A DNA stretch of 62,935 bases, counting the filler, from Craspedostauros australis (Eukaryota), in assembly GCA_030167865.1 (NCBI GenBank). It is 5 parts of 5 records of this genome, joined end to end, with 100 filler letters (N's around TTAATTAATTAA, not from the genome) between each part and the next. Parts side by side here need not be neighbours in the genome. Positions count along the whole stretch, not along the records: positions 60,525 to 62,935 come from JALAGF010005008.1; 4 more parts are not named here. One strand, given 5' to 3'. Made by a program: the position numbers and the translations under genes. Below are positions 9,181 to 62,935 of the stretch, one piece after another. Position 1 is the stretch's first letter, and each line of letters opens with the position of its first letter. Below the pieces are notes generated by a model. The model was not told the origin of the DNA. It searched no databases and saw only the letters and a list, made by a program, of their open reading frames with translations.

Positions 9181-9895
9181 GTTGGATTTCGTGTGCTGTT
9201 GCGACACGATCCAGAAGGGAAGGCCTTTGGAACTGCCAGTTGAGACAACCATTTGATGCAATTCTCAGAGGGATGAGTTTCTGGTGAAGTGTTGCTACTA
9301 TAACGATCACTAGAGAAGTGAAGTTGTACTGATCTCGGCTTTCGCCATAGGTGTTCTTTTGAGTTGATCAGTTGTTGCCATTAGGATATAGAAACAATGT
9401 TCACACACTTGGTGCGGATCTGCACTGATCCACAGGGTTCAACGTTGAGAACGGACAGGGATCCTTGCTCTCTGTTACTCTTTACTGTCTGCAGTAGTCT
9501 TCCAGCATAGAACACAAGAGCTTGACATCTTGTATAAGCTGTGCAGAAGACTCAGCAGCAGTTGTGACAGAGATGCACAGTCTTATACCCTGCTTGTGTT
9601 GAAGCAGGTTGAATCTCCTTGCCATGACTGTGTCATCAGAGTAGTTGCTATAGTTGGAGAGGGGATCAAGGCAAGTTGCAATACAAGGATCTGAGGAGCT
9701 TGTAGTTCCCAGAGTGGCTTGGATCGAGACGATCGTGCCTTTTGAGTCAGTGATGGTCCATGAATGAAAAGGGGGTGTAGAAAAGGGGGTTGTGTTCGTT
9801 GGGGTTGGGAAATTTCGCCCCAACAGTGAATTTCAGACAATAGTATGGGACACACTAAGAGTTGAATTCAGTCTGTCCTTAATTGAAGTATATCT
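9180..9895 (-). mobile_element. 5' LTR (family A) of an internally deleted copia element
   Basis: Collinear with 19892..20578 (gaaacaatg, ctgcactgat, gttgaagcaggttg, aaggatctgaggagc, tttgagtca, agtctgtcc). Followed on the minus strand by the PBS and then linker/RT remnants. Confidence 0.8.
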
Positions 9896-10427
9896 ACAGA
9901 TACAGAAGTAGCCCCTTTTGGTACTGTAACGGACAGTTGCGTTCAAGACACGGACACTATATCGGGCTTCGTGAATTGCTGTGAACAACCAAACAGCAAC
10001 AACAGAGTGCTTCTGGACTGCGTGGCATGAAACCCAACTGCAACACCCACACAGCGCTTGTCGCATGAGGAGCTGCCACCAACGTCCAAAACATACTTCC
10101 AACATCCAAAGACAGAGAGGTGTGAAGTTCTTGTGACGACCCCTGATTCGAGCGACTGGGAACTGTCTGGACTCTGCGATCCAACGAGTAATACAACGAG
10201 TAATACAACGACAAGTACCGACACCAACTCTGTGCAAACAAGGGCACCGACTGCATTTGCTCGCTTTCCATCCAAATCACAAGCACAACAGCACGGAGCA
10301 GAGCAGAGCAGAATACTCTTCTCTTCTCTGTAGGATCCAGAATAGCACTAAAGACAGGACTGTGTGTTTGTCTCTGTCTCCCTCTCCCTCTTGGGTGGAG
10401 CGATTAGTGTTGAAACGAGAGCAAAGG

Positions 10428-12026
10428 ATGCCGACGGCGCAGGACGGGAAGGACGATGTGGTGGGGATGGTGGTCGAGAACTCCGGCAAGTCGGGCGAGG
10501 AGAGCGGGACCCCCAAGAGCAAGGGAACCGTGACATCCTCCAAGGCCGGTGGCACCAGCGCGAACAAAGCAGACGACGGAAGCTTCGAGGAGGTGATCGT
10601 GCCGCTGGATTGGTTGGAGCTCGGCGGGCCCATCGATGAGCCTGCGTTCGCCCTGCTGGATGGGCTGTTCGAAGACCCCAGCGATGAGGCGTCGTTGACG
10701 CGTGTGACCATCCCCATCACGCGGCTGCCAGCGGTGCTGGGGCGCACGCACGTGACGTCCGACAAGCACTTCTTCGGCTTGGGCCGCAACAAGGCCGTCA
10801 GCCGTCAGCAGTGCGTCATCTACTACCGCGATGCGGATGGCGGCCGCGTTGGCATGTACCAGGATCAGGCTGGGGCGTCGTCTTCGGATGGTGGCGCTGC
10901 TGATGCTGATGCCAAGGGCGATGACAAGACCGGCGACAAGAGCGACACCCTCGTCTACCTCCCCAAACCAGCGGACAACGGCGTGGACCTCCTGCTGCGT
11001 CCCACCAAGGAGGAGAACGGCGAGCCAGACCCGCTGCCCAAGACCGGCTTCTTCACCATCGAGTGCCTAGGAAAGAATCGCATTCTGGTCGATGGCATCA
11101 AACTCGATCAGGGCCGCAGCGTTCCCATCCGTTCCGGATCCACGATTCGCATCTCCAGCTACATGCTCTACTTCCTGCTGCCGACCGACGTCGAGCCCAC
11201 GAGGGCGCCCGAAGCGGTGCTCACCAAGCTCAGAAGGAGCAGCGCGAACAACCCCGTCAGCGACGATGAAAGCAACGACGACAGCGGCAAGGGCGGAGGC
11301 ACCGACAGCGATGCAGATGGCGACAACGCTGACAACGACAACGACGAAGGCGGCCGTCGCACTCCTACGAACAAGGGCCCAACAGCGAGCAGCGGCAAGC
11401 GCAAGGAACCGGACGTGGTGCCATCATCCAACGCCGAGACGGAAGAACCCAAGGTCAAGAAGCTCAAATCCGGCCAGCTGTACCAGGCGGAGCTGGATGC
11501 GCTGCCGACGGAGGAGCTGCGGCAACGCATGACGGACGCGATCGAAGAGAACATCTGGGAACGAAAGCACCAGCTCATCGGTTCCACCGTCGTGGTGCGG
11601 GCCGTGATGGACGCAGCGCACTCCAAGACGATCCAGGTCGCCGCCAGGGACATGGGCGGCGTCACGCGCAGCCAGATCCTGGATTGGATCGCCTCCTCCT
11701 CCAGCTACAGCGTGTGGGTGACGCAGATGCTGTCCAGGATGGAGGAACGCTCCTACCAGGCCTCCATCACCAAGGCCCTCAACAAGGCAGGATACACGCG
11801 ACTCAACGGGTCGGGACGCTACGTGCGTTGGAAGCTTCCTGAGGGCATACCCAGTGCGTTGGATGAAGAAGAAGACGATAGTGTTGATGAAGTCGACGAA
11901 AACGAAGATGGAGATGACGAGAATGAGAATGAGAAGCAGCAAGGTGATGAAGGCGAAGGGGGAGGCGACGATGAGGATGGTGAGAACAGCGGGGAAGAGG
12001 GGAACGCAGACAAGGAAGATGAATAA
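10428..12026 (+). CDS. FHA-domain nuclear protein with a C-terminal winged-helix/forkhead-like region and acidic tail
   Basis: Long GC3-rich ORF. FHA motifs VLGR, KAVSRQQCVI, IECLGKNRILVDG, GSTIRISSYMLYFLLP; NLS-like basic patches. Confidence 0.85.
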   Translation: MPTAQDGKDDVVGMVVENSGKSGEESGTPKSKGTVTSSKAGGTSANKADDGSFEEVIVPLDWLELGGPIDEPAFALLDGLFEDPSDEASLTRVTIPITRLPAVLGRTHVTSDKHFFGLGRNKAVSRQQCVIYYRDADGGRVGMYQDQAGASSSDGGAADADAKGDDKTGDKSDTLVYLPKPADNGVDLLLRPTKEENGEPDPLPKTGFFTIECLGKNRILVDGIKLDQGRSVPIRSGSTIRISSYMLYFLLPTDVEPTRAPEAVLTKLRRSSANNPVSDDESNDDSGKGGGTDSDADGDNADNDNDEGGRRTPTNKGPTASSGKRKEPDVVPSSNAETEEPKVKKLKSGQLYQAELDALPTEELRQRMTDAIEENIWERKHQLIGSTVVVRAVMDAAHSKTIQVAARDMGGVTRSQILDWIASSSSYSVWVTQMLSRMEERSYQASITKALNKAGYTRLNGSGRYVRWKLPEGIPSALDEEEDDSVDEVDENEDGDDENENEKQQGDEGEGGGDDEDGENSGEEGNADKEDE

Positions 12027-12665
12027 GACGGCGCGAAGAAGATGTACGATCGTTCGCCAGTTGTGGCAGTAACAGTTGTTACGATGGCGGCATTGGCGAC
12101 AATCGCGATGATCAAGAAGACCCAGAAGATGATAGCTATCCTCTTTTATGTATTCTACAATATATTATTATACCAATGAAATGAGTCATTCAGGTATCAA
12201 CGCACAGAGCGATGTGCGTAGAGAGTGTGGAGTAAAGTAGAGTGGAGTAGAGTGGAGTAAAGTGGAGTCCTCTGAAGACGAACGTTTCGTCCCGTTGACT
12301 CAACTACAGTTAGACTACACTCGCCGGTATGGTATGTGTGGCGAGGCATGTCGTTGTGTGCCGATCTGTATGGCTGCGATGTCATGTGCTCTCGTTCTAA
12401 CGGAACCAAACCAACTCACATCACAAAGACGATGGCTGATGCAGGCACAAGGCAATCGGAGGTTGGCAGATACTATTTTATATGAATAGAATAGTCATCA
12501 GTCGGCAGCATCCTCAGGCGTCCACGCTCAAAATCGCCATCACGATGAGCACCGAGTGAAGTGTTGTACACGGCACGCCAAACCAACACAGAGGACACGA
12601 AGAGAGTGACAGTGAGAGACAAGGCAACGCAAGGCAAAGCAAGGCAAGGCAAGGCAAGGCAAGAT

Positions 12666-13865
12666 ATGGAGGCAGGAAGGATGTTGATGCCGTCGATAGC
12701 AATGCGGGTGGATGGCGCTGTCGTCGCGGGACTGGGTCTGTTCCTCTGCATGATCGTTGGCATCGTGCTGGCGAACAACCGATCGCTGCTGTTCGCAAGG
12801 CACGGGAGAAGCCACCGCCTCTTGGGTTGCTTGCATCTGCTCTGGATCGCGGTCGGCTTGGCGGCAGAAGTTGCTTCCAACCCATCTGTTTCATGGCATC
12901 CCGCATCCCAATCATTCCTCGGCGGCAGGCTCCGGATGCTCCTCTACGATGGCATCCTGGGAGTGCTGGGCATCGCAACCACGTTGACGGCAGCGAAGGA
13001 GTTCCCGCATCGGCTCGTGAAGAACGCGCACGGCCAATCGGGCACGCTGCACCACAGAGCCATCGTCACGCAGGCCGAGATGATCGAGCATTCCTTCTAT
13101 CAGGCGCTCAACTTGTGGCAGTCTCTCTGCCTCCATGCCATGGCGAATGTGCACCGCATCACGCCAAGCACCAACCTTGATCGCAGTGCCGTCAGCATCG
13201 TCCTGTTGTGGCTGTCGTGCGCGCCATGGTTCCTTCGGCACAAGTACCCGGTGCATTCCTTCAGCGCAAATTGGAAAGGGCGGCTGCATCCTCATTCACA
13301 GCCATCGTCATCGCCATCATCGTCAACAACAGCAGAGCAGTCGCACATGCTCAAGAAGGACGCAACCGCCGACACGTCGTCACCAACATGGGAATTCGAA
13401 TTGCTGCTGTATCGCATCAAGAAGATGCAGTACTTGTTCTACAAGCACGTCATTCTGCATGGCATCAACATATCCATGGCGGTGCTCTGCGCATCCAGCG
13501 CAGACGACGACGCGCGCATCCCCTACGATTCGTCCTGGAGGTTGTTCTGGTTGCTGTTGAACACATCGTACGTGATGGAATTCTTTCTGCAAACCTTGGT
13601 GAAGCGCCGCATGCTGTCGCAAGCACGGATGCTGCTCTTGCAGCGATTCTTGATGCTCATCGCGAGCCTCAGTGCCATGCAGATGCTCCTCCTCCCAATT
13701 CGGTCGCCATTCGCGAGCAGCAGCAGCAAGGATGGGACGATCATCGGGTTGGTCGGTGCAGCATCGTTGCTCTCCTTGATCGGCAACTTCGTTCATCGAC
13801 ATCATGACGTGTTGAATACGACCCTCATCGGCTCTCTTTTCATCCAATGGGTCAAGAGGACGTGA
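12666..13865 (+). CDS. uncharacterised multi-pass membrane protein
   Basis: About 400-aa ORF with many hydrophobic segments and conserved-looking stretches (EHSFYQALNL, KHVILHGINIS, YVMEFFLQTLVKR); start codon uncertain. Confidence 0.75.
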   Translation: MEAGRMLMPSIAMRVDGAVVAGLGLFLCMIVGIVLANNRSLLFARHGRSHRLLGCLHLLWIAVGLAAEVASNPSVSWHPASQSFLGGRLRMLLYDGILGVLGIATTLTAAKEFPHRLVKNAHGQSGTLHHRAIVTQAEMIEHSFYQALNLWQSLCLHAMANVHRITPSTNLDRSAVSIVLLWLSCAPWFLRHKYPVHSFSANWKGRLHPHSQPSSSPSSSTTAEQSHMLKKDATADTSSPTWEFELLLYRIKKMQYLFYKHVILHGINISMAVLCASSADDDARIPYDSSWRLFWLLLNTSYVMEFFLQTLVKRRMLSQARMLLLQRFLMLIASLSAMQMLLLPIRSPFASSSSKDGTIIGLVGAASLLSLIGNFVHRHHDVLNTTLIGSLFIQWVKRT

Positions 13866-14023
13866 CAGACTCAACGCTACTACCATCCCGGCGTCTCCAC
13901 AAATGCCAAATAACACAATACGAGTGTACTCTAGAGAGAAGAAGCATGCAATGCCTTGCGCGGGAAGTTATTCATCACATATAATTTGTACATACTCTGC
14001 AGTGATCCGCCTCCCCGTTGCTC

Positions 14024-16081
14024 CTAGTTTCGCACGATCACATCGATCAACTCATCCGATTCCATGTCATGGTCGGACGGCTTGGATCCCAAGTTCAAAG
14101 TATCGCCATCGAACTTGAATTCAATGCGCGACGATTTCTTCAGCTTGGCGGCCGCGCGGTACTTCTCCGGCATGGAGTGGAACGGTTCATGCGTCGCATG
14201 ATGGATCGTGATCTCCACGAGCTGAGGGCGTTTCTGACCCCGAACCTTCTGCATGCATCGCAGTCGCAATGATAGCATTGGACCGTGCCCTGAACTCTTC
14301 TTGTGGCCGTGGGTGGAACTGCCGCTGCTGGTGTGATTGGTGGAGGTATTGACCTGCGGGATCTGAATGGCCTTGCATTTGACATCCAGCATGTCCTCGT
14401 CCTCGAGCTCGCATTGCTGCGGTGTCTGCTTGGGCTGCAAGATGCCGCCATCGAAGTGCAACGTGATGCGCGTGGATGCGGGCAGATCATACTTCTGCAG
14501 AAGCTGATCTTGCAAGTGACGGAACGGCTCCCTCTCCTTCAACTTGAACTGATCCCTCTGCTCCGCCATCTTCTTCTTTCCGTTGATCTCCACCATCGTT
14601 CTGCAGGTGAGACGCAACGTCTTGCCAAAATCGCGGCCCAACGCAGCCGCAGCTAACTCCTTGTGTGCCATGGCAAGATCCCCCCGATTAGCATTGCCTG
14701 CATCGTTCTCGTCGTCGTCGTCGTCGTCACTATCAAGGATCTCGATGCTATCCTCCGCCTTGTAGTTCTGCGCCTGAACCAGGCATGCCGTCGCCATACG
14801 TGAGCGTTTGAGGAGATCCAGCTGCTGGTTGCTCGCGCCCTGCGTTTTCAATTTGGTAAGAGACACCCTGCGATCCTCATCTTCGTCCGAACTCGACTCC
14901 AACAGATCGATCGTGGAAATGCTCGCTGCATTCGCCGGCAGAGTTGATTTGGCAGGTGAGACACGCTTGCGTCGACCTGGAGATGATTTCTTGCGGCCTT
15001 TCCGTGCCTGGCTCCTCGTCTTCATCTTTCGCTTGGTTGCTGTTCGTGAGGATGGTGACGAAGTGGTTGTTGGTGATTCTGAAGGAGAGACTGTCGCTGA
15101 TACCCCAGATCGCGATCCTGCCCGTCTTGAAGATCTTCGTGTTTCGGAAGTGGTTGCTGGAATGCTGGCATCGTCACTTGACCTCATCTTGGCCGTTGCT
15201 ACTGCTGCTGCTGCCCTCGTAGAAGACCGCGTTGCACGCCCTGACCGTGTCCGTCTCGGCGTGGTATTCTCCTTCTCTGATTCGGCCTTCTTTCGTGCTG
15301 CTGATGCTCTTGATAGCGGTGGCGGAGAATCCAGGATGATGACGTCGCTGTCATCATCACTATCGCTGTGATTGCTGTTTTGCGAAACCATGGGTTTGCT
15401 CGCAGTGGCGCCCTTGCCTGGTTTCTTTCTGCCCAAGGATGATGGCGGGCTGCTTGATTTGCGTTTGCTCCCACTGGTGTACTTCAAAGCGTTGCCTCTG
15501 CCGCTGGCCGGTTTCTTAACTCTACCATTGCTAATGCTCTTTCGGTTCTCGCAATCGCAATCACTGTCACTGTCGCTGCTCTGATGATCATCGCTGAAGA
15601 GCTGCTTCTTCATGAGCTCCAGCTTGCGGAGGTCGCTTCGATTGCGACGCTCGGCCGCCGCCAGCTTGGAAGCCTTCTGCATGCTGGAGGGACCAGAAGA
15701 CAAGAACGAGGAGGGCTTGATCTTCGGTTTCTTCTTGTCTGCAAAGTTGGCCATCTCCGCTAGGTCGTCGTCATCAGAGTCTGGCCCATTTGCGGCAGCA
15801 CCAGAGTTGGCACCTTTAGTGGCAGCACCGGCAGCAGCTGCTGAGGCCTTCGGTGAGATCTTCATCTGGAACTTCTTTGAAGTCTTGCACCGAAACACTT
15901 CATCATCTGAATCAGAATCAGAGTCAGATGCTGCCCCGCCAACACCATGATGCAGGCTGCCATTTGTTGCAGCGTTGCCTTTGCCTTTGCCGTCATGCGA
16001 TTCATCAGTGTCGCTGTCCATGACGCCGCCCGCATCAGGACTCGACATGTACGGGCATTCATCGTCAGAGGAGTCGCTCAT
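14024..16081 (-). CDS. Rad60/Esc2/NIP45 (RENi)-like protein with two C-terminal SUMO-like domains
   Basis: Disordered S/D/K-rich N-terminus with SIM-like motifs (VIILDS, TIDLLESS, IEILDSD), then two SUMO-like repeats (LHFDGGIL..ELEDEDMLDV; FKFDGDTL..DMESDELIDV) with no terminal GG. Confidence 0.85.
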   Translation of the reverse strand: MSDSSDDECPYMSSPDAGGVMDSDTDESHDGKGKGNAATNGSLHHGVGGAASDSDSDSDDEVFRCKTSKKFQMKISPKASAAAAGAATKGANSGAAANGPDSDDDDLAEMANFADKKKPKIKPSSFLSSGPSSMQKASKLAAAERRNRSDLRKLELMKKQLFSDDHQSSDSDSDCDCENRKSISNGRVKKPASGRGNALKYTSGSKRKSSSPPSSLGRKKPGKGATASKPMVSQNSNHSDSDDDSDVIILDSPPPLSRASAARKKAESEKENTTPRRTRSGRATRSSTRAAAAVATAKMRSSDDASIPATTSETRRSSRRAGSRSGVSATVSPSESPTTTSSPSSRTATKRKMKTRSQARKGRKKSSPGRRKRVSPAKSTLPANAASISTIDLLESSSDEDEDRRVSLTKLKTQGASNQQLDLLKRSRMATACLVQAQNYKAEDSIEILDSDDDDDDENDAGNANRGDLAMAHKELAAAALGRDFGKTLRLTCRTMVEINGKKKMAEQRDQFKLKEREPFRHLQDQLLQKYDLPASTRITLHFDGGILQPKQTPQQCELEDEDMLDVKCKAIQIPQVNTSTNHTSSGSSTHGHKKSSGHGPMLSLRLRCMQKVRGQKRPQLVEITIHHATHEPFHSMPEKYRAAAKLKKSSRIEFKFDGDTLNLGSKPSDHDMESDELIDVIVRN

Positions 16082-16132
16082 GGTCAGAAGCCTTTGGTTC
16101 TGACTTCGGTTTGTGGTTGTTTCACTTTGCCT

Positions 16133-16185
16133 CGCTGTGGTTTGCTTTGCTGTGGTTTGCTTTACTGTGGTTTGCTTTACTGTGG
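16133..16185. repeat. 15-bp tandem repeat, about 3.5 copies, upstream of the Rad60-like start
   Basis: (g/a)ctgtggtttgcttt repeated. Confidence 0.8.
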
Positions 16186-17518
16186 CTGCTGTTGTGGCTA
16201 TTGCTGCGGATGTTGGTGGAGTGTGCGAACTCATGCTTCGAATGAATGGTTTGCTTTGATGCCAGAGTTCGCTGTTGCGTACTTCTCGTAGTCGTGCTTG
16301 TGTGGTGCGAGTAGATCGCACAAGCACTTGGTGGAGTCATCAGTTGTGGTCTTGAACATGAAACACTGTTGGAAATCAACCGCTAAATAACCGTTACTAT
16401 CTCGTTTCGAAAAAAGAAACGGTCGAGCATTTCAGTCCGTTTGGTCATTTTCAAACACACAACTTCGTTGACTTCGTGTTCGGATCTAGATCATTGGTGT
16501 GTCCCTCTTTGATTTTGTCTTGTGAGAATTTAACATTTGCACCGTGCACCGTCACTCTGATCTCTCCGAACACAAACGGAGATGCCAAAGGAAGCATTGT
16601 GTCAAATTGGATTGTGGGGGAAGTGACTTCAAGGAAAGATCACGTCTCTGGTTGGCTGCGGCTTCGAGTGGCGTGTTCTTCTGTCACGTAGTAGTATGGG
16701 CAGGACGATGCCAAAGATCTTTGGTCGAATAGTACTTCAACTCGTCGTGTTGCGTCATGTACATGTCCTTCCAAGATGGTGGCGATTTGTGTCACGGAAG
16801 GCTCTTTGGACGAACTCCAGTAGAGGGAGGAGAAGGTCGTGCCAAAGGAACACAGCATCCAGTACTCGCAGGACGGGTGACAATACGACTACATCACCAG
16901 CGGTGACGGTCGACTGTGGATCATCTGGTACTCAATGCGCCCCTCAGTATCGCACTCAAACAGGATCCATCGCCAACGGCGAGTAGCAGGAGGAGACAGT
17001 ACAGCTTCTTAGAGTGTTGAAGGGAGGGAAGAATGCGCTCTAGTTGGTGTACTTCTCGATGGTAGAGAGAGCAAGCAAACATTTCTCGTTTAGTCGTGCT
17101 AAGACCTGCGATCATCGCGGTTCGAAATTCACATTTGGTTCTTCGCACTTGCGTGGGACAGTCCGCTATGTTGCCGCACTCTCTTGATTGAGAGCCCGGT
17201 TGCTTCTGTGCCCAATCTATGTACATCTTCTGTGTGGATGTTTGTGTGCTTTTGTTTCACATTCGGCGTCACGTGACTCCTCTCCAGCAATCGTGACCAT
17301 CGAAGCGCTTTCCTGTATGCAGTATTCGCCATGCTGCCGCGCTCCAGCGACAGAAACCAATTTGGATCTGTTGTGATCCCGCATCAGGTGGGTACTTGTC
17401 ACTCGACATTCGTCGGAAGTGGTTGTTCAGCAGTGACTAGTGCCTTCAAGAGCTGTCTGTAGCCAAACAATTTGGCGATTTTTGGATATGTTTGTATGTT
17501 GCATGGGTTCTAACCCTT

Positions 17519-30185: not shown

Positions 30186-30229
30186 NNNNNNNNNNNNNNN
30201 NNNNNNNNNNNNNNNNNNNNNNNNNNNNN

Positions 30230-30241
30230 TTAATTAATTAA
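30230..30241. other. artificial contig spacer TTAATTAATTAA (also 31513-31524, 35493-35504, 60469-60480)
   Basis: Identical 12-mer with stops in all six frames, centred in N runs four times. Confidence 0.95.
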
Positions 30242-30285
30242 NNNNNNNNNNNNNNNNNNNNNNNNNNNNNNNNNNNNNNNNNNNN

Positions 30286-30793
30286 ACACTCCGTTCATTC
30301 AGTACTGGCTCCTACTCCATGAGTACTCGCCATTTGAAGTTCACCTTCTGTATCCATGATGCTGATGCCGTTCGGTCATTGGATCTTCACCTTCTGCTCT
30401 GACTTGGAGACAGATGTCAACGTGGTTGACATGATGACATCCTGTCGACGTCAGTAGGTGTCCTTCTGCTCTCCAGATGTCACGTTCCATTGGTGATGCA
30501 GTGGTCTGTCNNNNNNNNNNNNNNNNNNNNNNNNNNNNNNNNNNNNNNNNNNNNNNNNNNATTGATGGATGGACGGACGATCTTCCAATTCTCTCAGAAA
30601 TCGTCATTTGCAAATTTCCTCCAGAAATCTTGCCCCTTTTCGTGTGTTNNNNNNNNNNNNNNNNNNNNNNNNNNNNNNNNNNNNNNNNGACACGAATGTA
30701 GTTATACCGTCCAAGTGTGTATGAGAGAATAGCGGGTGAACGATGCACATATACTCGTACATCTCGACATATACTCACATGTACATCTCGACA
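30286..30793 (-). mobile_element. LTR family B, partial (gapped)
   Basis: Minus strand begins TGTCGAGATGTACATGTGAG at 30793. The terminal 100 bp are nearly identical to 31865-31969 and 35360-35448. Confidence 0.8.
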
Positions 30794-30907
30794 TATATTG
30801 ACGATGCCATCGCATCGTCAAGAAAAATCGCTGGGCGCAAGAGGATCACAGCAAGGCAGCAGCATCGCATGCTAGGACTGCGCCCTCCTCAAATACAACC
30901 ACAAGCT

Positions 30908-31120
30908 GGAGCAGCAGCAACGGTGCGGCAAGAGAATGTGACGGCGCGTGGAGCAGCAGCAACAGTGCGGCGACAGAATGTGGCGGCGCGTGGAGCAGCA
31001 GCAACGGTGCGGCGAGAGAATGTGGCGGCGCGTGGAGCAGCAGCAACGGTGCGGCGAGAGAATGTGGTGGCGAGCGACGGAGCAGCAGCAACGGCGCGGC
31101 GACAGAATGTGGCGAGCAAC
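30908..31120 (+). repeat. 42-bp minisatellite, about 5 copies (GAAATVRRENVAAR in one frame)
   Basis: ggagcagcagcaacggtgcggcgagagaatgtggcggcgcgt units; an (ACC)n(AAC)n tract follows at 31385-31468. Confidence 0.9.
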
Positions 31121-31390
31121 GGTGACGACGCGACCTCGAGTTTGTCTTCTGTGGAGGCGGTGACTTCTCCGAAGCGAGCTCGAAACGCCAAGGAGCAGAT
31201 CCAGTGCACAGTCGGTCTCCTGGAGAAGCTAGACGAAACCCAGCGTCAGTTTCAAGCGTGGCTCGCTACGGCCACGCCTCCGATTCGTGCGGAACGCAGA
31301 GCAGATTCTCAGATGGCGGCATCGCTCGCCGCTTCTTCGATCGCTCAAACTGTGGGGGCAGCGGCTTCCAACGATGGCAACACAACCACC

Positions 31391-31467
<77 letters not shown>

Positions 31468-31568
31468 CNNNNNNNNNNNNNNNNNNNNNNNNNNNNNNNN
31501 NNNNNNNNNNNNTTAATTAATTAANNNNNNNNNNNNNNNNNNNNNNNNNNNNNNNNNNNNNNNNNNNN

Positions 31569-31846: not shown

Positions 31847-31969
31847 GAATCACAGTATACTATCGACACGAATGTAGTTATACCGTCCAAGTGCATATGA
31901 GAGAATAGCGGGTGAACGATGCACATATACTCGTACATCTCGACATATACTCACATGTACATCTCGACA
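31847..31969 (-). mobile_element. LTR family B terminus abutting the copia fragment
   Basis: ..catatactcacatgtacatctcgaca| then pol sequence resumes at 31970. Confidence 0.85.
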
Positions 31970-34900
31970 GGGGTCCGTGTGCTGGGGTTATCCGCCTCGG
32001 GGTCCATGTCTTGGTCGAAGGTGACGCGCCTGTTGTTGTTTATACCCTTCCTGAAGGGGCGGACCACGCTCCGTACCAGCACGCGTCGAGATTCGTCATC
32101 CAGCACGTGGTACGTGAGGAAGTCCCCATGGGACTCTGCCACGCCNNNNNNNNNNNNNNNNNNNNNNNNNNNNNNNNNNNNNNNNNNNNNNNNNNNNNNN
32201 NNNNNNNNNNNNNNNNNNNNNNNNNNNNNNNNNNNNNNNNNNNNNNNNNNNNNNNNNCCGTGTCGTACGGTGTATGGGATTGCGTATCGTAGGGACGGGT
32301 CTGATGTATGGTTGTGCACGTAGCACATGTATCGGAAAGCGTAGAACCATGCCTTTGGTGGTGCCCCAGTTCGATCGATGAGTGTCGTGACACATCGCTT
32401 CATGTACAGGATGGCGTTGTGCTCGGCCGGGTTCTGCTGCTGGTTGTGCGGTTCTGTCAGTCTTGATTTGATGTGGAGGTCCCTAAGAAGCTTGAGGACC
32501 TTCTCTCCGGTCTGTTCCTTTGCGTTGTCGCTGTGGAAGGCCCATGGTGCCCCCTCTGTCCTGATAAAATCCTGGAAGGCGACGAAAACTCCTTCTTTCT
32601 TCTTCAGGCCGTATGCGTTGATCATGTGGGAGGATGTTCCGTAGAAGATTTGTGCCATGGAGTATCCGTCTTCAAAAGACTTGACGTTGGAGAATATAGT
32701 GTCTGTCGCCACGATCTCCCGGATTCGTTGTCGTTGCATCCACTCGAATCTGGACTTCTTGTGCCTTCGCATAGGGTAAGTGATCACTGCCCGCATGAGT
32801 TGTGTGGTTCTGGCGAGGGTCTGTTTGATCACGTGCGTGGGTAGGTACCCGAGGTACGGTCGGATCTTGTGAAGATCAATGGACTTCCATTTTGCTCGGA
32901 AAGGGAACCCTTGGTGGCTGTACTCGGTCATGGCTTCCGCAGGGTGTCGGTCCATGGTGTACATGGGGTTATCCTTTCCCGGTTCATCAGTGCCGGTGGG
33001 GTTCTCGCCCTTGGTGTGCCCATGGTATTCAGTTGCGCTTCGTGGGTCTCCCCGGATGGTATCAGTGCGTGTTGCCTTGGTCACGCCGATCTCGTTGGGG
33101 ATGCGAAACGTCTCCCGATTTCTCTGGAACGCCGGTTCGGATCCTACCGAGTGTAAGGATGAGATGGCGCTGTCTGCCTCGGCATCCAGGTCTGGTACCT
33201 TTGTCGGTGGTACGTTGGTTGACTCGGTGTATTCCTTCTGGTCCGTTCCTACCGCGTTAGCCTCGCGGTCGATGCCCAGCTCCCTGTATAGGTGGTCGAT
33301 GTCTCCCGCAGAGAGATTGTCCACCAGGTCGAAGAGGGTGTCTTGGATCGAGATGGCCGTGTCAGTGGCCGATTTCGCGAACGTTACCGTGTCAATTGCA
33401 TGTGACATTCCGATGAGCTCCTCGAGACTTAGAGTGTCAAGGAATGCGTCCACTTTGGGGCACTCCTGGTTTGCACGGTAGGGGGCTCCTATGGCGTGCC
33501 CATCTGGATGACGGGCGTTGGGGTCCATGGGTTCTCGTCCCTCTATGGGATTATCCGGGGTGCCGTCCGTGGCCTGGCCTGTCCTGGGTTCCATGGGATC
33601 CATCGATGCGTTGTGGGCGCTTGTATCCATCGCTCCAGTGTCATGCGGTGCATCAGGTCGGCCATCCCAATCAACTGCCTTCTCTCCTCCAATTGGGTCC
33701 CTGGTAAGGTAGCAACCCATGGGCACGTTGCATACGTGTCCTCCTTGGTGATCCGAAGGGTTCCATCCTTGCTTTGGGGTGATGTCGTGGGTGGGCAGAT
33801 CCTCATCGTTCTCCATGATGGGGAAAACGTCGAATGTCATCAGCGCGTCCCGCATCTCCAAGTTGATCGTTGTGTCCTCGTCAGGCATCAGGCATTGTCT
33901 TCCTGTGCCTGGTGTCGAGAACGATGCCCGGTGTTCCGACGAAACCGTATCGAGGACGGCTCCACTGGCCCGAATTTGATGGTCGGAGAGCAGCGTCACC
34001 CGACTGTCGACGTTCAAGGCGGCTTCGTAAATCCGGAGGATCACTTCGTTGCCTTCCCTGGTCCTGGCCTTGATGCTCGCGTCAACCACCGCGAGGTTGT
34101 TCTTCCTCATCGTGCTTGCCACAGCACCGACGATGCTGTACGTACGATGCGGGTATACGTAGTCAATCTTCCAGACTCGGTCCTTGTTCCCAATGACGCA
34201 GCATTGTGCGCCGCCGTCGCATACCGCGTATGTTTGCGGGGAAAAGGTCGCCAGGTTGATCAGCTGTTCGGGTACTGATTGGCGTTGGTTGGGTGCTGGT
34301 GGATCGATGGGGCTTATTGCGTCGGATGAATCACTCATCGTGATCATCTTCACGAGCCGGTTGTTGCCATTGTCCTCGTATCCTCCATAGTCGACCAGGA
34401 ACTTGGCAAGTTCCGAAGCGTCAATCGAGGATAGATCTGAGCCGTTCTCGTCCTGGGAATCGGTTCCCTCGGCGGATCCTGGAGTGTACCTGGCCAGGTT
34501 CGCGTGGGTGACACCTCCATACTGTTTGTGTGGCTTGGCTTCCTCCCCTTTCTCTGGGGGCTTCACGTTGGCAGGTGGTTGGATGTCTTCCTGTTCCTTC
34601 TTGTTCTCGACACGGGTGAATCCGGATCCGTTCCGGTCATTGTTGCGGCGGGCCCAACGGAGGGAGCTGCGGAGCTTCATGATCACACGGCGGACCTTTT
34701 CGGGTAGTCCGTCGAATACCTCTTGCGAGATGAAGGTGGGATCTTCCTGTAGTTTCTTCGAGATGGCATTGATGACCATCTTGGTGTTGGATTCGTCTTG
34801 ATCCTGGCTGGCTTTGGTGGTTGCCTTGAAAATCCTGCGTTTGCCGGACCTTGATCCCCGCTGGTTGTTGGCTACCGCATTGTCCCTGGTGGACTCGGAG

Positions 34901-35359
34901 ATGAGGTACATGCAGGTGGCTCCCATCGACTGCATGTCCGGGCTTCGCTCGATGCTCCGGACCATGGTGCGTACGTTGATGTCGTCGCAACCGATGAGGT
35001 GGTTGAGGAGCGTACGACGTTGTTGCGCGTCGGAGACTTGTTGATCTGGGTTGGTAGCCAGGAAATTCACATTAGCGAATATGTCCTGGATCTCTTTCAC
35101 GTAGGCTCCCAGGTCTTGTCTGCTGGGGTTGAAGTCGTGCACTCTCTTCATCAGAGAGTCGACCTCCATTCCTCTGATCCAGTCGTTGCCGTAGGTATTG
35201 AGGAGCTCATTCCAGAATAGGACACCGTCTTCGGTAAGGAGTCCTCTGGTGGCGAGTCCGTGTGCTGGGCCGCCGGCGAAGACGGAGTATAGTCCCGCGA
35301 ATAGGGTCCTGACGTCGCTCGCGACCTGTTCTGGAGAGATAGTTGTTGGCACTCCTGTC
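31970..35359 (-). mobile_element. copia (CoDi-like, different lineage) gag C-terminus, aspartic protease and integrase fragment
   Basis: 1133-aa open frame apart from an N gap. Protease-like AVCDGGAQCCVIG; LGYLP..IKQTL..TTQ..PMRRHKKSRF; integrase VATDTIFS, FHSDNAKEQ, TEPHNQQQNPAE. Both ends are cut by LTR-B termini. Confidence 0.88.
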
Positions 35360-35448
35360 TGTCGAGATGTACATGTGAGTATATGTCGAGATGTACGTGT
35401 ATATGTGCATCGTTCACCCGTTATTCTCTCATATGCACTTGGACGGTA
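35360..35448 (+). mobile_element. LTR family B terminus, opposite orientation
   Basis: tgtcgagatgtacatgtgagtatatgtcgagatgtac... is the reverse complement of 31881-31969. Confidence 0.85.
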
Positions 35449-38053
35449 NNNNNNNNNNNNNNNNNNNNNNNNNNNNNNNNNNNNNNNNNNNNTTAATTAA
35501 TTAANNNNNNNNNNNNNNNNNNNNNNNNNNNNNNNNNNNNNNNNNNNNAGAACTCTTGTTGGCACCATGTCGTATGTGACACGTCGTCTGGGGGCCTCTG
35601 AGTGGAAATCGAAACAATGCAGAACTTCTCTACTTGTGCACAAAAACATGCGCATAGACGAATTTGAAGCGATGAAACCGTGAAGAGGGACAACTTGGAA
35701 TCTTTTGGGGGAGTGCACAGGTGCATGCGCGCGAGCAATTGTGGAGCCACGTCTTCGCACGAACCATGACATCGCGGGACATGCTTGGAGTAACTCGCAC
35801 CATGATACCGCATCAGCCTCTGGGTTCGTTTTCCTGGACTCATGGTATCGCCTGGATGAACTTCAGAGCAGCGCAGTTAGAATTCCAAATGAGCACCTCA
35901 CGAGAAGGAGAAAGAGAAGAAAAATCCAACCATGCAGATCGCCTTGGGGCAGACACTTTGGTTGTGTTGGCGACGGAAGAGCTTCTCACGCCGCAAGTGG
36001 GGGCGGCGAGCCTTTGTTGGCGAGAGGCGATTGACATGTCGTGAGCGAGAGCATAGGAGAGCGAACATCGCCCGATCAAAACATCCAATGTTGGGACTGT
36101 CAACATCAACGTGTGAATAGGGACATGGGGACGAAACAAACACAACCACGACTACGAGCGTCAACATCAACATCAACATCAGTGCAACGGAGAACGAGGC
36201 ATTGTTCCCAACGAGAAGGGGCTGAGCCATGGCGTGGCAGCAATCTTGCTTGACGGGACCTTGACACGGTGATTATCTGAATACCCTTCCACGGCGGCCA
36301 CACTCCCACATACTCGCGTCTTTGGATTCGTCCCGTGTGATCCATTTGCTGGTGTTCTGTTCGGTTGCCATAACGGCAGAATATGGTGAAGTATTGTGTT
36401 GTGGATGAGCTGCGCAGTGTGGTGTGTCAAGATTTGCGAGGCCGGCAGACGGTCAGAGTCGCGTCCCCAAGTTGTTGGTTGTGCTCAAATTGTTGGTACC
36501 GCACAAGCGTCGAGTCGTCGACTATGTGGTGGCTTGTGTGGCACGTACGAGTGCTGTACTGCGCTGCACTGCACGTTAATGTAGTGTCATGTACTGTACT
36601 GGACTGCATATATTCCTCTGCTCTGCTGCGTCGGCTATTGCGGGTTAATTTCCTCTATTGCCAAAAAGAGTGCTGATTCGGCAGAGAGCTCTTCACGTAG
36701 CTTCTCGCGAAAGACATGGGGACAGCGCCGAGGAGGAGGCGACACAAGAGCAACTCCCATTGCATATTTGGTCGCAAATCGGACCAGAATGGCAATGTCA
36801 CGAACAACTATTTTTGGTCTGGACACGTGTTGGCAGAAACCGAACTTGGGGAACGATGTGGTTGGGGACTGGCGAACGGTGGTGCTGGCGTGTCAAGATT
36901 GTTCCAAAAACAGCCATTTAGTCAGCGAATGGGGGAGCGAGGCATCGCCCATGAAATTTCGAATGGCTATTTAAGGGGAACCGCGACGCCGGCCAGAATC
37001 AAACCAAGTGCCGAACAAAAATGTCAGTTTTCTGGTCGATTCTGACGGACTTCCAGAACGTTTTGGCTTTTTGGCGCGTTGGAGTTCCTCTACCCGTATT
37101 CGTCAAGCTTCCGACCGCCAACGAACAAGCTCTCGCCCTCGCCGCACACGAACAGGCAGCCATCGCAAATCAACTCGTGTCTGACCGCTTCGAGGAACGG
37201 AAGGACGGAGACGGAAATCTTGACCGTTCGCGGTGACGCTGCGAATTTGGTTGGCTCCGCGCTGGAGACCCGTGCTAGCAAAAACAACAAAAAGGCTCTC
37301 TGCATGAGAATGTGTTCGTGTGCGTGGTACCTGTGCTCGTAGATCGTAGAGTACATGTCCCGCGCATGTGGTCGAACCTGTTGCCGTGTTCGAACCACAT
37401 CTCTTCACGTACGAGTACGGTCCAACCAGACCAAAGTGGCACCCGCACAATCACGCTTAGTGTATCCTATGCACCAAAATTACGAGGCGCGAGGCGAACG
37501 CCTGGTCCGACCGGATCCCACACACCTGAGTTTCATCTAAAACAGAGTCGCCGCAAGTTGTACCAGGCTCGTGTCCGCACCGGCGTCTGCACCTCTGCAT
37601 CGAACCTCAGAGCACGTCAGTCAGCCTTGGCAGCGCGCACACATAGACACACAGACAACAGTCGTACTCGTATTCGCACCACGCACACAAACACTCGCTC
37701 TCAGCTTCAGCTTCAGCACCGGCGACAAGGTCGTTGGACCAACCGTCCAAGACCCTGCTGTGGTCTTGCTCGCCATTCGCAGTGTCGGGACAGACTCTTT
37801 TATCAGTTTCGGCTCTGCAACTGCCAACGGTGGGTCCACATTCACGATCTCGCGCTCACACTTGTGCTTTCATTCGCTCTCCGAGTGCTCTGTCGGTGCA
37901 CGTCTACATCAGGAGAGAGTCAGGTCTGCCCCTTCCTTGCCACAAAATCTCTCCTTTGCCTACTCGACCCATTCTCTTCGATTCGAACCAATTCCCAAAC
38001 AATCTCACAAATAACAAACATCCACACGAATACGAGCACTCGTAGCCACCAAG

Positions 38054-58569: not shown

Positions 58570-60424
58570 ATGCCTCCAACTCGGCCACGTGGATCGGCAT
58601 CCAAGTCCACGTCGAAGGCTGCAACGAAGTCCACATCATCTTCTGGTGCGGAAGGTCTCCAGCTCTACAAGGGAACCACTCCACAATGGAGAATCGGGAA
58701 GATGCTCGGTGCTGGTGCGTGCGGCACCGTGCATGAGCTTCTGTCACTCAAGCCATCGTCGGCCTTCACCTCAAACGACTTTGCCATCAAGATCGCACCG
58801 CTCCCCACCAAGACCACCAAGAAGCGCAACTCGCCTGCTGAGGTCAACGCATCTCGGCTCTACTACGAGCACAACATGTATCACAATCAGTTCCAGACTC
58901 TGCAGGGCACCTTCGTTCCTCGTTTGCCACCCAGCAAAGGGCCGCAGGCATTCGGTGACATCTCAGGTGAGCTTGTGAGGCAGGCATATTGTTGACTGTG
59001 CTGAAAGTGATGAGTGATGAGTGATAAGTGTGATGGATATGTTCGATCAGTGGCGTCTGCTTCGTTTGCTGACATTGTTGGATCCTCCATCATACCATGA
59101 TGCCGTCATGCCATCTCATCATCGTACTAATCTCACTAATCTCACCAAGCCCAATTCTCTCTCATGCCATCCATACATACATACCTTCATCCATCCCTTC
59201 ATTCATCCACATGTTCATCTGCACATACGTATTCGTACAAACGTAGGCTTCCGATTCATGGTGATGGAACGGATGCACAGCCCGCTCGAGATGATTGTCC
59301 CGCTCCTCCTCGAACTTGCCACTCCATCCAACAGTGCCACCACCAAAACCTCAAGGAGCTCAAAGAGCTCAAGGAGCAACAGAAGCTCCAAGAGTGACAG
59401 CGGAGGTTCCCGCGTGGTGCCATTCGGACCAGTTGCTGCACAGCTGATCAAGTCTATACAAGCCATCCACGAGTGCAGACACATCGTCATCGATGTCAAG
59501 ACCGACAACTTCATGTTGGCTCCATCCACTACCTCACCAGCATTCCCAAAGATCAAATCAACCAAGTCTGCAAAGTCTTCGAAATCAACAAAAGCAACCA
59601 AATCAACAAAAGCAACTGCAGCAGCAGCTCTCGCTCAACGCATCCGCATCCTCGATCTCGCCCTCGTCCAACCAAGGGCCACCTTCTCTGCTTCGCACAG
59701 ACCGAACGAGACCGCTGACGGAATCAAGGCAGGCACGCCACTCTACGCATCGCTCAACGTCCATCAAGGACAGACACCGAGTCGCAGGGACGATCTGGAA
59801 GCACTCGCGTACATCATCGCAGAGCTCATCATGCAGCTGTCGTCTGGTGGGGACATGTCCCTCACGTTGCCATGGAGCAACGGAAAGTCGGATGAAGACA
59901 TCGGCAACATCAAGGAATCGCATGTGACCAACCCCGATTCTGACTTCTACAAGATGCTTGGACCGGTTGAGGTGGGCGACACGTTCCGCAAGTTCCTTGA
60001 TGAGATCAGAGGGTATTCGTACAAGCAGGAGCCTGACTATGATGGTCTTGTGGAGATGCTCCTCGATCTTGATGTGGTGGTGGTTGATGGTGATGGTAGT
60101 ACTCGTACTAGTGGTGGTGCTATTGGTGGTGCTAATGACGATGGTTTGTCGTCAAAGAAGGCAACACCGAAGCAGCCATCTGCAACAGCGAAGGAATCGA
60201 TGGCATCGATGGCAACAAGAACGACCAGGGCAACCAGGGCAAGCAGAGCAACCAGATCGAGCAAAGCAGTTAGAGCACCGGCAGAAGAGCCAGCCACGGC
60301 TCCAGCCACAGCTCCAGCCACGGCTACAGCCAAGCGAGCAGGTACCAAGAGAAGAGCAACACGAGCCTCGCAAGCGTCAGAAGTAGCAGCAGCTGCAGCT
60401 ACGCCTGCTTCATCCTTGGCGCAG
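58570..60424 (+). CDS. CK1/VRK-group protein kinase, 3' truncated by gap; exons 58570-58966, 59247-60424+
   Basis: IGKMLGAGACGTV, FAIK, spliced GFRFMVMERM, DVKTDN, GTPLYAS..H.G...SRRDDLEAL..LPW, PDY. Confidence 0.9.
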
Positions 60425-60795
60425 NNNNNNNNNNNNNNNNNNNNNNNNNNNNNNNNNNNNNNNNNNNNTTAATTAATTAANNNNNNNNNNNNNNNNNNNN
60501 NNNNNNNNNNNNNNNNNNNNNNNNGCAGGGAGGGGTGATGCCGACAGTACCATCTCCAGAAGGAGGTGGTGACACGCCGACTCCACCATCCCAACATCCA
60601 TCTCCTCATGCCGTTGCATCCGGCTTCCAGGTTCTGCATATCCGCCGTATCCCATTGATTCGCAGAACCCTTGACCAGCTGATCCATCCAGAGGTGAGTG
60701 GGAATGGATGCGTCGTCGGACTTGGTAGCCTTCTGAGCGCGCCGGNNNNNNNNNNNNNNNNNNNNNNNNNNNNNNNNNNNNNNNNNNNNNNNNNN

Positions 60796-62289
60796 TGAAA
60801 CAGCAACAACCTTGGTGGTGACACGACGCAGGGAGGGGTGATGCCGACAGTACCATCTCCAGAAGGAGGTGGTGACACGTCGACTCCACCATCCCAACAT
60901 CCATCTCCTCAGGCCATTGCATCCGGCTTCCAGGTTCTGCATATCCGCCGTATCCCATTGATTTACAGAACCCTTGACCAGCTGATCCATCCAGAGGTGA
61001 GTGGGAATGGATGCGTCGTCGGACTTAGTAGCCTTCTGAGCGCGCCGGTTCCATTCTGCCTCCTCCAGCACGCTGCGCTGAAGTTCTGATGGAGCCACCC
61101 ATGTCTTGATGGGAGGGTGACTGGCTGCTGATGAATCTGTGGAATCAGGAGTACAAGACGAGTTGTCGTTGGTAAGTGACGAGGCAGGAGGAGAGACGGA
61201 GCTGATGGTGTGGAGCGATGAAGTGAGAGGCATGGAATCGCCAGAAGATGGTAGCAACATAGAGTTGGTAGTAACACGGTGAGCGGTAGATGCCGCTGCA
61301 GCGGATCCAGGAATGAATACCGCTGCAGACGGACTCAAGCCGCGACCGGCGGAAGATGGAGGCGAACTGACAGGACGGCAGCCAGTCGCAAAGGAAGAAG
61401 AATCGAAAAGAAAAGTACCCCCCTNGTTGAATGTGCAAAGTTGGGACAAAACAGAGAANAACAANTTGCNNGGGAGCGCAGAAGNAGAAGCAGAAGGAAG
61501 GGTGAGAGCAACCGTATCAGGGAAGTCGAGCGCACGAAGACGCTCGAACGACCGAAGCGGGCGAGCGCACCACTTGCCACGACCGAACACGGAAGGCGCC
61601 AGCACAAACTCCGACCGAAGGCAACCGATCGGGATGAGACCACCAGGATGCAGCACAGGTTTACCATACACCTTCACGGCGTCCACGCGGATGACGCGAA
61701 GAGGTCCAACATTGAGGTTGGGTGGAGGAGGAGGATGCCAGTGCTGAGACGATTGCTTGTCGTCCAGCACCGAGTGCAGAGTGCGAGGAACCGAATGAAT
61801 CTGTAGGGGGCCTTGNNGAGGCNAAGGGCATCGCCAGAAGATAGTCNGAGAGCCTACGGCATNGGTGACGCCACCGACCTGTGAGTGCTCCACGCGCCAA
61901 GACCTTGCCGACCAACCAGGTGGAAGCCAGCGAGAGCGATGCGATGAAGCAACCACAACGAGAGAACTGGCATCAACAGCAGAGAAGAGGGATTTGGTGA
62001 TGGAATGCTCGGCTAGTAGCAGATTAACGCTGTTGAGCTGCGCCACAGAGGGTGCTGCTGGTTGCAGCACCACCAATGGGAGCAGCTGCCGGATGATCGC
62101 GCCATCCTCGTCAGAGCCAGACCAGCCGGCGATGAAACCGACAGACAGCCCCAGCGAGTCAAGATCGAACACCCAAGCCGGGCATCGCGAAGCAACGACG
62201 CCCGCACAGCAATCAGTCTGCTGCAACCTGCGCCCAACTGTGCCCCGAGTCACGCCGTGCAAGGATGGTCTGGAATCCACACCATCCAT
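60796..62289 (-). CDS. ORF2 N-terminal part with a degenerate C5 DNA-methyltransferase-like region
   Basis: WCARPLRSFERLRALDFPD resembles MTase motif IX; GWSARSWRVEHSQVGG resembles the motif VII-VIII region; no FxGxG or PCQ. Confidence 0.45.
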
Positions 62290-62316
62290 TGCAACAGCCG
62301 ACTCAGGAGCCGCGTC

Positions 62317-62935
62317 TCAGTTACTGTTCTTCTTCTTCTGTTGGTTGAGCTCGTTCTTCGCATTGGCACCAGCCCGCTTGGCCTCAGCAGCCTTCTTGCC
62401 GCTGCGCTCAGCCTCGTCCATGGCATCCTGTGCCAGCAACTTGACAAGCTTGAGCTCATCGCGCAGCTTCTCCATCTCGGACCTGTCGACACGCTCAGAG
62501 AGCTGGTACATGGACAGCGCCCGAGNNNNNNNNNNNNNNNNNNNNNNNNNNNNNNNNNNNNNNNNNNNNNNNNNNNNNNNNNNNNNNNNNNNNNNNNNNN
62601 NNNNNNNNNNNNNNNNNNNNNNNNNNNNNNNNNNNNNNNNGACCAAACTGGAGTCAGATCGGACCAGATGTAGCTCGTCAAAGACGGAGCAGACGCATCG
62701 GCCGACCAAGTTCCAAGCCGAGGCGGCCTGAAAGTTGGATGCCGACACGAGGTCATGGTAGAAGGTCTGCATGAATGAGGTGAGCCCATGCCAATGGATC
62801 TCAGCGCGCCTACTAAGGTAGCGAGCAAGGGCCGCCTGGGCAGGGTTGCCACAGGACGGGACCTTTCCGTTGATGCCTTGTAGGTACCCACGGTAGGACG
62901 AGGAGACGATGCCACGGTAGGATGACATGCCATTG
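62317..62935 (-). CDS. gag-like ORF1 C-terminus with coiled coil (partial)
   Basis: Open frame running off the window; AWNLVGRCVCSVFDELHLVRS, then a charged coiled-coil tail; stop 28 bp before the ORF2 ATG. Confidence 0.5.
   Translation of the reverse strand, partial: NGMSSYRGIVSSSYRGYLQGINGKVPSCGNPAQAALARYLSRRAEIHWHGLTSFMQTFYHDLVSASNFQAASAWNLVGRCVCSVFDELHLVRSDSSLVXXXXXXXXXXXXXXXXXXXXXXXXXXXXXXXXXXXXXXXRALSMYQLSERVDRSEMEKLRDELKLVKLLAQDAMDEAERSGKKAAEAKRAGANAKNELNQQKKKNSN

Follow-up and report, generated by a model that had tools for sequence, protein, structure and literature searches.

Retrotransposons can carry DNA methyltransferases (DNMTs) of their own. In the DIRS-like retrotransposons of Symbiodinium known as SymbioDIRS-Dnmt3, a Dnmt3-type DNMT is found inside Pol (de Mendoza et al. 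2018, PMC5890265). These elements have a separate open reading frame (ORF) for a recombinase, repeats in the arrangement A-coding-B-A-B, and a reverse transcriptase (RT) too divergent for Pfam. Pfam-type searches detect their DNMT, which falls together with Dnmt3, evolves under purifying selection, and performs de novo CG methylation in yeast (PMC5890265). A 2026 preprint lists SymbioDIRS, SymbioLINE, Gypsy-Dnmt3, and EpiLTRs as DNMTs borne by transposable elements (TEs), and describes Dam-type domains in DIRS elements (10.64898/2026.05.21.726589). A further element can be found in a stretch of 62,935 nucleotides from Craspedostauros australis (assembly GCA_030167865.1), referred to below as the window. 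On its minus strand, positions 62289..61430 encode a domain of 286 amino acids (aa) that is very probably a pseudoenzyme derived from C5-cytosine methyltransferases (C5-MTases), placed at the front of the Pol of a DIRS-order retrotransposon.

Retrotransposons with working DNA methyltransferases have been described before and interpreted as cases of epigenetic mimicry. For a conserved, dead one in the same position, full-text searches gave no precedent. The analysis supports the view that recombinase retrotransposons of a large unnamed family, from environmental eukaryotes, share a domain derived from a C5-MTase, conserved although catalytically dead. The stretch under study is probably the 5' part of Pol (ORF2) of such a DIRS-order element, opening with a dead C5-MTase that would be a nucleic-acid-binding module. 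All positions below count along the whole stretch, and residues of the domain are numbered from the ATG at 62289.

Predicted fold

The domain was modelled with AlphaFold2 on an alignment of the query and 62 relatives, the query containing X residues. The model has a pLDDT of 86.7 and a pTM of 0.83, and its first half alternates between strands and helices. When the Protein Data Bank (PDB) is searched with Foldseek, 23 matches are found at E<=1e-3, and among the matches listed all belong to the C5-MTase family. The best is M.HhaI (E 7.6e-7, TMq 0.59), followed by DNMT2, M.MpeI, M.HaeIII, DNMT1, DNMT5, and DNMT3. The first family other than the C5-MTases appears only at rank 35.

A second method, VIA-align, is independent of Foldseek. 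Of the 48,161 chains set against the model, the 18 that rank highest all belong to the C5-MTase family, with Z from 16.8 to 9.9, and cover approximately residues 17-286 of the model. M.HhaI stands at Z 16.8 (rmsd 3.8 over 247 aligned residues, model 17-286 against chain 2-320), and DNMT3-type chains reach Z 11.7-11.8, below the bacterial, DNMT2, and DNMT1 chains. Generic Rossmann methyltransferases get no higher than Z 9.3, and the one with this score covers only residues 25-153 of the model. In a library of viral structures (BFVD), the named proteins among the top matches are also cytosine methyltransferases.

The model has the two-lobed architecture of C5-MTases: a Rossmann catalytic lobe, a target-recognition lobe, and a C-terminal motif IX/X helix that returns to the large lobe. 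Because the matches take in the second lobe and the C-terminal return, the likeness goes beyond the Rossmann core. A Rossmann C5-MTase fold, which the sequence-only reading had proposed by eye, is thus predicted with high confidence, and both Foldseek and VIA-align are specific for C5-cytosine methyltransferases.

That reading had rested on five peptide strings and had named no strand. All five are found, in the same order, in the minus-strand ORF that begins at ATG 62289, and they coincide with the secondary-structure elements of the AlphaFold2 model that its motif assignment leads one to expect. The motif I-like string AGVVASRCPAWVFDLDSLGLSVGFI (aa 29-53) corresponds to a strand (27-32), a helix (40-43), and a strand (48-54); this strand-helix-strand unit at the motif I place (aa 27-54, 62128..62211) is without the glycine loop. 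The string at the motif IV position, VNLLLAEH (aa 88-95), holds strand 90-93. The VII-VIII-like string GWSARSWRVEHSQVGG (aa 125-140) consists of strand 126-129 and a turn at 135-138. RTLHSVLD (aa 169-176) comes next, and the motif IX string RPLRSFERLRALDFPD (aa 243-258) matches strand 240-244 and helix 247-253.

Loss of the catalytic motifs

The catalytic motifs were looked for in an alignment of 141 non-identical N-terminal domains (N-domains), the query included. The GxG of the motif I signature FxGxG occurs after strand 1 in 2 of the 141. The query reads VVASRCPAW there, and in the family the glycine loop is replaced by W/F-P-x-W, with P37 in 105/140 and W39 in 120/140. The PC of motif IV follows strand 4 in one sequence of 141 (LLLAEH in the query), and the 141-member alignment has no conserved Cys column at all. 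Neither an ENV-like triplet (motif VI) after strand 5 nor the RxR of the motif VIII signature QxRxR at the corresponding place is present in any member (0/141 for each). The Pfam model of the family, PF00145, does not match the query (E<=10), any of 26 relatives (E<=0.01), or any of 30 full ORF2s (E<=1). The catalytic degeneracy first noticed in a single copy therefore holds for the family as a whole. Without the Cys, the Glu, and the loop for S-adenosylmethionine (SAM), the domain cannot transfer methyl groups by the known mechanism and is, to judge by its residues, a pseudoenzyme.

In place of these motifs the family has invariants of its own. At the motif VIII place lies the signature H-x-x-x-G-G-V-T (aa 135-142, 61864..61887), with H135 in 141/141, G139 in 135/141, G140 in 140/141, and T142 in 118/141. 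The motif IX-like block (aa 243-258, 61516..61563) has R243 in 140/141, L245 in 130/141, T246 in 82/141, E249 in 141/141, D255 in 139/141, and P257 in 116/141. Its spacing from R to E is +6, equal to that of E. coli Dcm (RRLTPRE), and a G-K/R dipeptide lies 17 residues past the motif IX Pro, at about the place of motif X. Further conserved positions are R120 (107/133), W126, G181, P188, H214-x-x-G217-L218-x-P220, W240, and P273-G-K275.

The family is read as having descended by divergence from a C5-MTase, with catalysis lost. Homology is preferred to convergence because R243, L245, E249, D255, and P257 are nearly invariant, the spacing is Dcm-like, and the profile comparison described below pairs the family with Dcm at motif IX.

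Two subclades carry strings of their own at the motif IV place (query aa 90-101): S-D-(I/V/M)-D-P-P-R in the one, I-(G/N)-G-x-(L/I)-P-D-C in the other. These strings may be relics of a G-G-x-P-C motif, or they may be due to chance. An N6-adenine-type DPPY motif was also considered for this place and rejected, as DPPR is confined to one subclade.

Sequence searches and family size

Sequence methods do not show a methyltransferase in the domain. No Pfam family is found at E<=10 in the domain, in the longer ORF, or in the ORF upstream. Searching PDB sequences with the query gives only a chance match to a P450 and no methyltransferase; the family profile likewise finds no methyltransferase there, and a long relative (P0071) finds nothing. 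A protein-atlas look-up of the closest relative, P0003, gave no usable match.

Relatives are nevertheless numerous. An exhaustive HMMER search of 1.84 billion representative proteins yields 211 at E<=1e-3 and 14 at E<=1e-10. The ORF is more than a chance reading frame, because it has these 211 representative relatives and a specific fold match to C5-MTases. Two modules are conserved among the relatives, namely the N-domain (query approximately 10-290) and a module at query 400-480. The latter is matched at E<=1e-3 by 120 of the 187 proteins collected and, in long relatives, sits between the methyltransferase-like domain and the RT; it is called the pre-RT module here. Every relative that was looked up is unnamed or labelled 'hypothetical', and none of 26 relatives scanned carries any Pfam family at E<=0.01. 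The Pol family as a whole comprises at least 526 clusters at E<=1e-5. Since so large a family is all labelled hypothetical and has no Pfam domain, naming it and mapping its domains would annotate part of the eukaryotic dark matter in metagenomes.

Architecture of the element

With a profile built from seven long relatives, 242 relatives were collected on metagenome contigs, and the best 80 of the 242, representing 79 distinct loci, were kept. Loci with enough flanking sequence share one layout of about 8 kb in total: ORF1 of 700-810 aa, ORF2 of approximately 1250-1330 aa, and ORF3 of approximately 500-527 aa. ORF1 is gag-like and ends in a coiled coil, and ORF3 overlaps the end of ORF2. The N-domain profile matches 65 ORFs in these 79 loci.

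Behind the N-domain, ORF2 shows traces of a divergent RT. RVT_1 is found below the cut-off, at one common position, in 11 of 30 full ORF2s (E 1.1e-4 to 0.19). The profile of long relatives matches only retroviral RTs in the PDB, and these weakly (E 0.58-2.1). YVDD, GDAS, and TDN motifs can be read by eye in ORF2 of the relatives.

ORF3 can be recognized by its structure. Its model has a pLDDT of 81.2, and the top Foldseek matches are Cre (3.7e-4), lambda Int, XerH, and Tn1549 Int; a PDB sequence search with the ORF3 profile found no recombinase. All 20 ORF3 sequences compared have R337, K373, R463, R466, R467, W491, and Y510. The N-terminal part of ORF3 (for instance L018:5996-7576) is a Cys-rich module, in which C70, C78, C124, and C127 are invariant and C42, C45, C57, and C75 nearly so. 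This module has no Pfam match and looks like a zinc-binding one.

Repeats complete the picture. In one locus, L018, and clearly in that one only, split direct repeats have the order A-coding-B-A-B (A 1-130 = 8278-8407, B 7652-7778 = 8457-8583). Tandem units can be seen in L005, with a period of 8913 bp (2943-7748 = 11856-16661), and in L039, with one of 8113 bp (1-3162 = 8114-11275). In L036, L042, L021, L023, and L061 the contig ends are identical over about 127 bp. The elements assemble as tandem arrays or circles, which is expected for recombinase-mediated insertion of circular intermediates. A host gene, as opposed to a transposon, was rejected on the ORF1/ORF2/ORF3 architecture and the repeats.

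The link to retroelement genes that the sequence-only reading had drawn is found in the relatives. There, ORF2 continues from the domain into a putative divergent RT and an RNase H-like part, and an ORF for a Cre-like tyrosine recombinase (YR), in place of a DDE integrase, follows; the copy in the window is truncated before these parts.

Two further observations concern the relatives. L005 adjoins a gene for a eukaryotic U3 snoRNP protein. The tail of ORF2 (the last 200 aa or so; P0071 1000-1216) has eukaryotic clusters as its nearest named neighbours in the protein atlas, with scores of 0.90 and 0.89, and a minority of the members of these clusters carry PF05869 (Dam). The tail may be a degenerate adenine-methyltransferase domain of the DIRS type, in which case a single Pol would hold two methyltransferase-derived domains.

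The Gag-Pol junction

Of 38 ORF1/ORF2 junctions in 35 loci, 29 have just one in-frame stop between the two ORFs (26 TGA, 3 TAG). At the other 9 of the 38, ORF2 overlaps ORF1 in the -1 frame. The window copy is of the in-frame TGA form. Reading TGA as a sense codon was considered and rejected: because TGA also terminates ORF2 (28/39) and ORF3 (15/49), it must be a true stop in these hosts. Pol is probably made as a Gag-Pol read-through product, so that the dead methyltransferase would come directly behind Gag. The two kinds of junction suggest that two recoding strategies, read-through and frameshift, exist inside one element family. If the read-through is as it seems, the element would illustrate, in compact form, how gag-pol stop-codon read-through occurs outside retroviruses.

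The copy in the window

In the window, two stop-to-stop ORFs on the minus strand, 62317..62934 and 60469..62316, lie in one frame and are separated by one TGA (62317..62319), a likely site of programmed read-through. The upstream ORF is the 3' part of ORF1, gag-like with a coiled-coil C-terminus; it runs off the end of the window and contains an N gap at 62526-62640. Its counterpart in the relatives is the C-terminal 150 aa or so of ORF1 (700-810 aa): within a local set, nine ORFs of the related loci match it there, with E from 2.1e-7 to 4.5e-6. Because the upstream ORF matches the C-termini of ORF1 in relatives, the window holds the end of gag and approximately the first 500 codons of the Pol of a DIRS-order-type element. 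A start of ORF2 at ATG 62289 is probably not used, as the frame is continuous with the upstream ORF across the TGA.

The pseudoenzyme domain (aa 1-286, 61430..62289), identified with AlphaFold2, Foldseek, and VIA-align, is followed on the same strand by a poorly conserved Ser/Pro-rich linker (61093..61429), to which few relatives align. Next comes the pre-RT module (aa 400-480, 60850..61092), which reads K-A-T-K-x-D-D-A-x-(V/I)-P...L-W and continues with a W/R-rich helix. The assembly is broken from 60425 to 60849 (60425..60849, a region without strand) by a gap, a duplicate, and a contig joiner, and the RT, the RNase H-like part, and the recombinase are missing beyond it. The ORF appears to be 606 aa long, and this length is inflated, since the frame passes through N gaps and a duplicated stretch. 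Positions 60525-60745 are a 97.3% duplicate of 60828-61048, an N gap lies at 60746-60795, and single N bases inside the domain give rise to its X residues. The joiner N44-TTAATTAATTAA-N44 at 60425-60524 severs the element before the RT. The trustworthy frame runs from 62316 to about 60796.

Constraint on the domain

The N-domain is the fastest-evolving part of Pol. In a set of 28 full ORF2s, pairs of N-domains are on average 19% identical, compared with 48% for the RT and 53% for the RNase H-like part. Although it changes so fast, its frame stays open and its invariant residues are kept (H135 and E249, each in 141/141), which argues for a function of the domain.

Possible functions and alternative explanations

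Nucleic-acid binding, specifically of DNA, is the most likely single function of the domain, and it is put forward tentatively. Gag-Pol would carry the domain into the particle, where it would act as a nucleic-acid-binding module, with cDNA or target DNA lying in the old methyltransferase cleft. Contacts could be made by HxxxGGVTD at the motif VIII place, by HGGGLLP and PRDxS in the lobe resembling the target-recognition lobe, and by the conserved R120, R243, and K275. The bound domain might then assist recombinase-mediated integration or shield the cDNA. In real C5-MTases such as M.HhaI, motif VIII and the recognition lobe contact DNA, and a binding role is favoured because the conserved loops sit where these two parts touch DNA in the real enzymes. 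If a binding role is true, a captured methyltransferase fold has a second, non-catalytic use in transposition.

A more specific version of this role can be imagined, and is rather unlikely as it stands. A large, unnamed DIRS-order clade of aquatic protists would keep the dead C5-MTase as a clamp that flips bases in DNA, placed at the N-terminal end of Gag-Pol, where it would read a feature of the DNA and hand the DNA to the recombinase. The feature might be the repeat junction of the element itself or, in the target, the state of CpG sites or of methylation. On this view the element would have captured an enzyme for epigenetic mimicry and made of it an integration-specificity factor, and the active Dnmt3 of SymbioDIRS would represent either the ancestral state or a parallel capture.

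The sequence-only reading had suggested a DNA reader or a decoy as possible functions. Other explanations ascribe something else to the domain. It might still be an enzyme, either a methyltransferase with a non-canonical SAM site or nucleophile, or one with a new activity on a flipped base that involves H135, E249, D255, and R243. The conservation of His, Glu, and Asp (141/141, 141/141, and 139/141) is typical of active sites, the complete two-lobed architecture with its cleft is retained, and an Asp or Glu stands at the end of strand 4 in 86/141. Enzyme activity is nonetheless improbable: a glycine loop follows strand 1 in only 2/141, no Cys is conserved, and no conserved acidic residue for the SAM ribose stands at the end of strand 2. 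Moreover, E249 and D255 lie in motif IX, which is structural in known C5-MTases. Dead DNMT paralogues that act through protein contacts do exist, DNMT3L being an example, and the domain might in the same manner be a decoy or adaptor that binds a host DNA methyltransferase or methylation reader and so blunts or redirects the silencing of new insertions. Retrotransposons have repeatedly captured methylation-related domains (PMC5890265; bioRxiv 10.64898/2026.05.21.726589, in the parts that bear on such captures). No result of the analysis points to a protein partner, however, and DNMT3-type chains are not the best structural match (Z 11.7-11.8 against 16.8 for M.HhaI). The sequence-only reading had taken CG methylation to act on TEs in the window, and this finds no support in CpG content, which shows no depletion: the observed/expected ratio is 0.82 in the element, 0.90 in the N-domain, 1.05 and 0.97 in two copia-like elements, and 0.94 in the whole window. 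With the ratio of the element so close to the window mean, there is no hint of a conflict over methylation, and a decoy is quite improbable.

It might also be asked whether the methyltransferase likeness is an artefact of modelling, or only that of a generic Rossmann fold, so that the domain would be an unrelated N-terminal extension of Pol. Sequence methods do not see a methyltransferase, and the modelled query contains X residues. Yet two aligners and two libraries place C5-MTases first by a wide margin with both lobes matched, generic methyltransferases match only residues 25-155 or so, and the motif IX register fits Dcm, so that an artefact is very improbable indeed. A purely structural role is a further rival. 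Against all of these, a dead C5-MTase that binds nucleic acid is preferred here.

Several points weigh against that preference. The places of motifs I, IV, VI, and VIII come from the order of secondary-structure elements and column statistics, and not from residue-level superposition. The link of the family to real C5-MTases by sequence is non-significant by itself: hhalign finds nothing between the family and a single Dcm sequence, and against 80 Dcm orthologues its sole pairing joins the motif IX segment to Dcm 398-419 (probability 1.4%, E 0.037). The Dcm profile used is shallow, its 80 orthologues being 66-97% identical to each other, and a locus search with PF00145 in control genomes had yielded E. 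coli Dcm as its only locus. The RT and RNase H-like parts appear as such from sub-threshold Pfam matches and motifs read by eye, not from a fold. The invariance of H135, E249, and D255 is equally compatible with a new catalytic site. Among full-length sequences one pair is nearly identical (99.9%) and all others have at most 63% protein identity, so that synonymous sites would be saturated for dN/dS. Finally, the window copy has ambiguous bases and, being cut by a contig joiner, is without RT or recombinase, and neither blastn nor tblastn finds a second copy of the element within the window.

Other features of the window

The window is a chain of separate contigs, with four N44-TTAATTAATTAA-N44 joiners at 30186-30285, 31469-31568, 35449-35548, and 60425-60524. 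For this reason physical adjacency cannot be presumed for neighbours across a joiner, such as the element and the kinase gene at 58570-60420. The rest of the window consists of ordinary eukaryotic genes and two copia-like elements. One of these, at 113-4514 (plus strand), matches RVT_2. The other, at 31951-35496 (minus strand), has an ORF of 1181 aa without a Pfam match at E<=0.001; it has the look of gag, protease, and integrase by eye and is bounded by contig joiners. An ORF at 30740-31516 (plus strand) encodes near-perfect tandem repeats of the peptide GAAATVRRxNVAAR together with long Thr and Asn runs. It adjoins a contig joiner and also has no Pfam match at E<=0.001.

Comparison with known systems

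Full-text literature searches turned up no recombinase retrotransposon described as bearing a catalytically dead DNMT-like domain. The passages of the 2026 preprint that were consulted make no mention of a dead C5-MTase domain (10.64898/2026.05.21.726589).

The domain resembles C5-MTases (PF00145; M.HhaI, Dcm, DNMT2) in its two-lobed fold, which extends over 247 of 286 residues, and in the R-to-E spacing of motif IX that it shares with Dcm. It differs from them in having no FxGxG, PC, ENV, or QxRxR, in its own invariants (H135, GGVT, P188, HGGGLLP, and W240), and in that the Pfam model is blind to it. DNMT3L has also kept the C5-MTase fold without the catalytic motifs. DNMT3L, however, is a host regulator that acts through contacts with DNMT3A/B, whereas the domain here forms the N-terminus of a retrotransposon Pol.

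The order of the genes can be compared with that of PAT-like and Ngaro-like elements. In this DIRS-order layout, gag is followed by RT and RNase H, with or without a Dam-like methyltransferase, and then by the YR. The element shares the ORF order gag, pol, YR and, in L018, the split direct repeats. A PAT-like layout would also fit the Dam-like tail of ORF2 (PF05869 clusters at 0.90 and 0.89), which is a weak lead. Unlike these elements, by their descriptions, the one studied here has a C5-MTase-like domain at the N-terminus of its Pol.

SymbioDIRS-Dnmt3 (PMC5890265) is similar in having a C5-MTase-type domain inside a Pol ORF, which in the present family also carries a probable RT and an RNase H-like part, and a tyrosine-recombinase ORF after it. 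Its repeats follow the A-coding-B-A-B order seen in L018, and Pfam seed models do not reach its divergent RT either. The present element is unlike it in that PF00145 matches neither the query nor the 26 relatives nor the 30 full ORF2s, in that the catalytic motifs are gone, and in that the best structural matches are compact enzymes of the bacterial and DNMT2 types, not DNMT3. SymbioDIRS-Dnmt3 is the closest known case, and the element of the window is very probably a catalytically dead variant of the same general kind.

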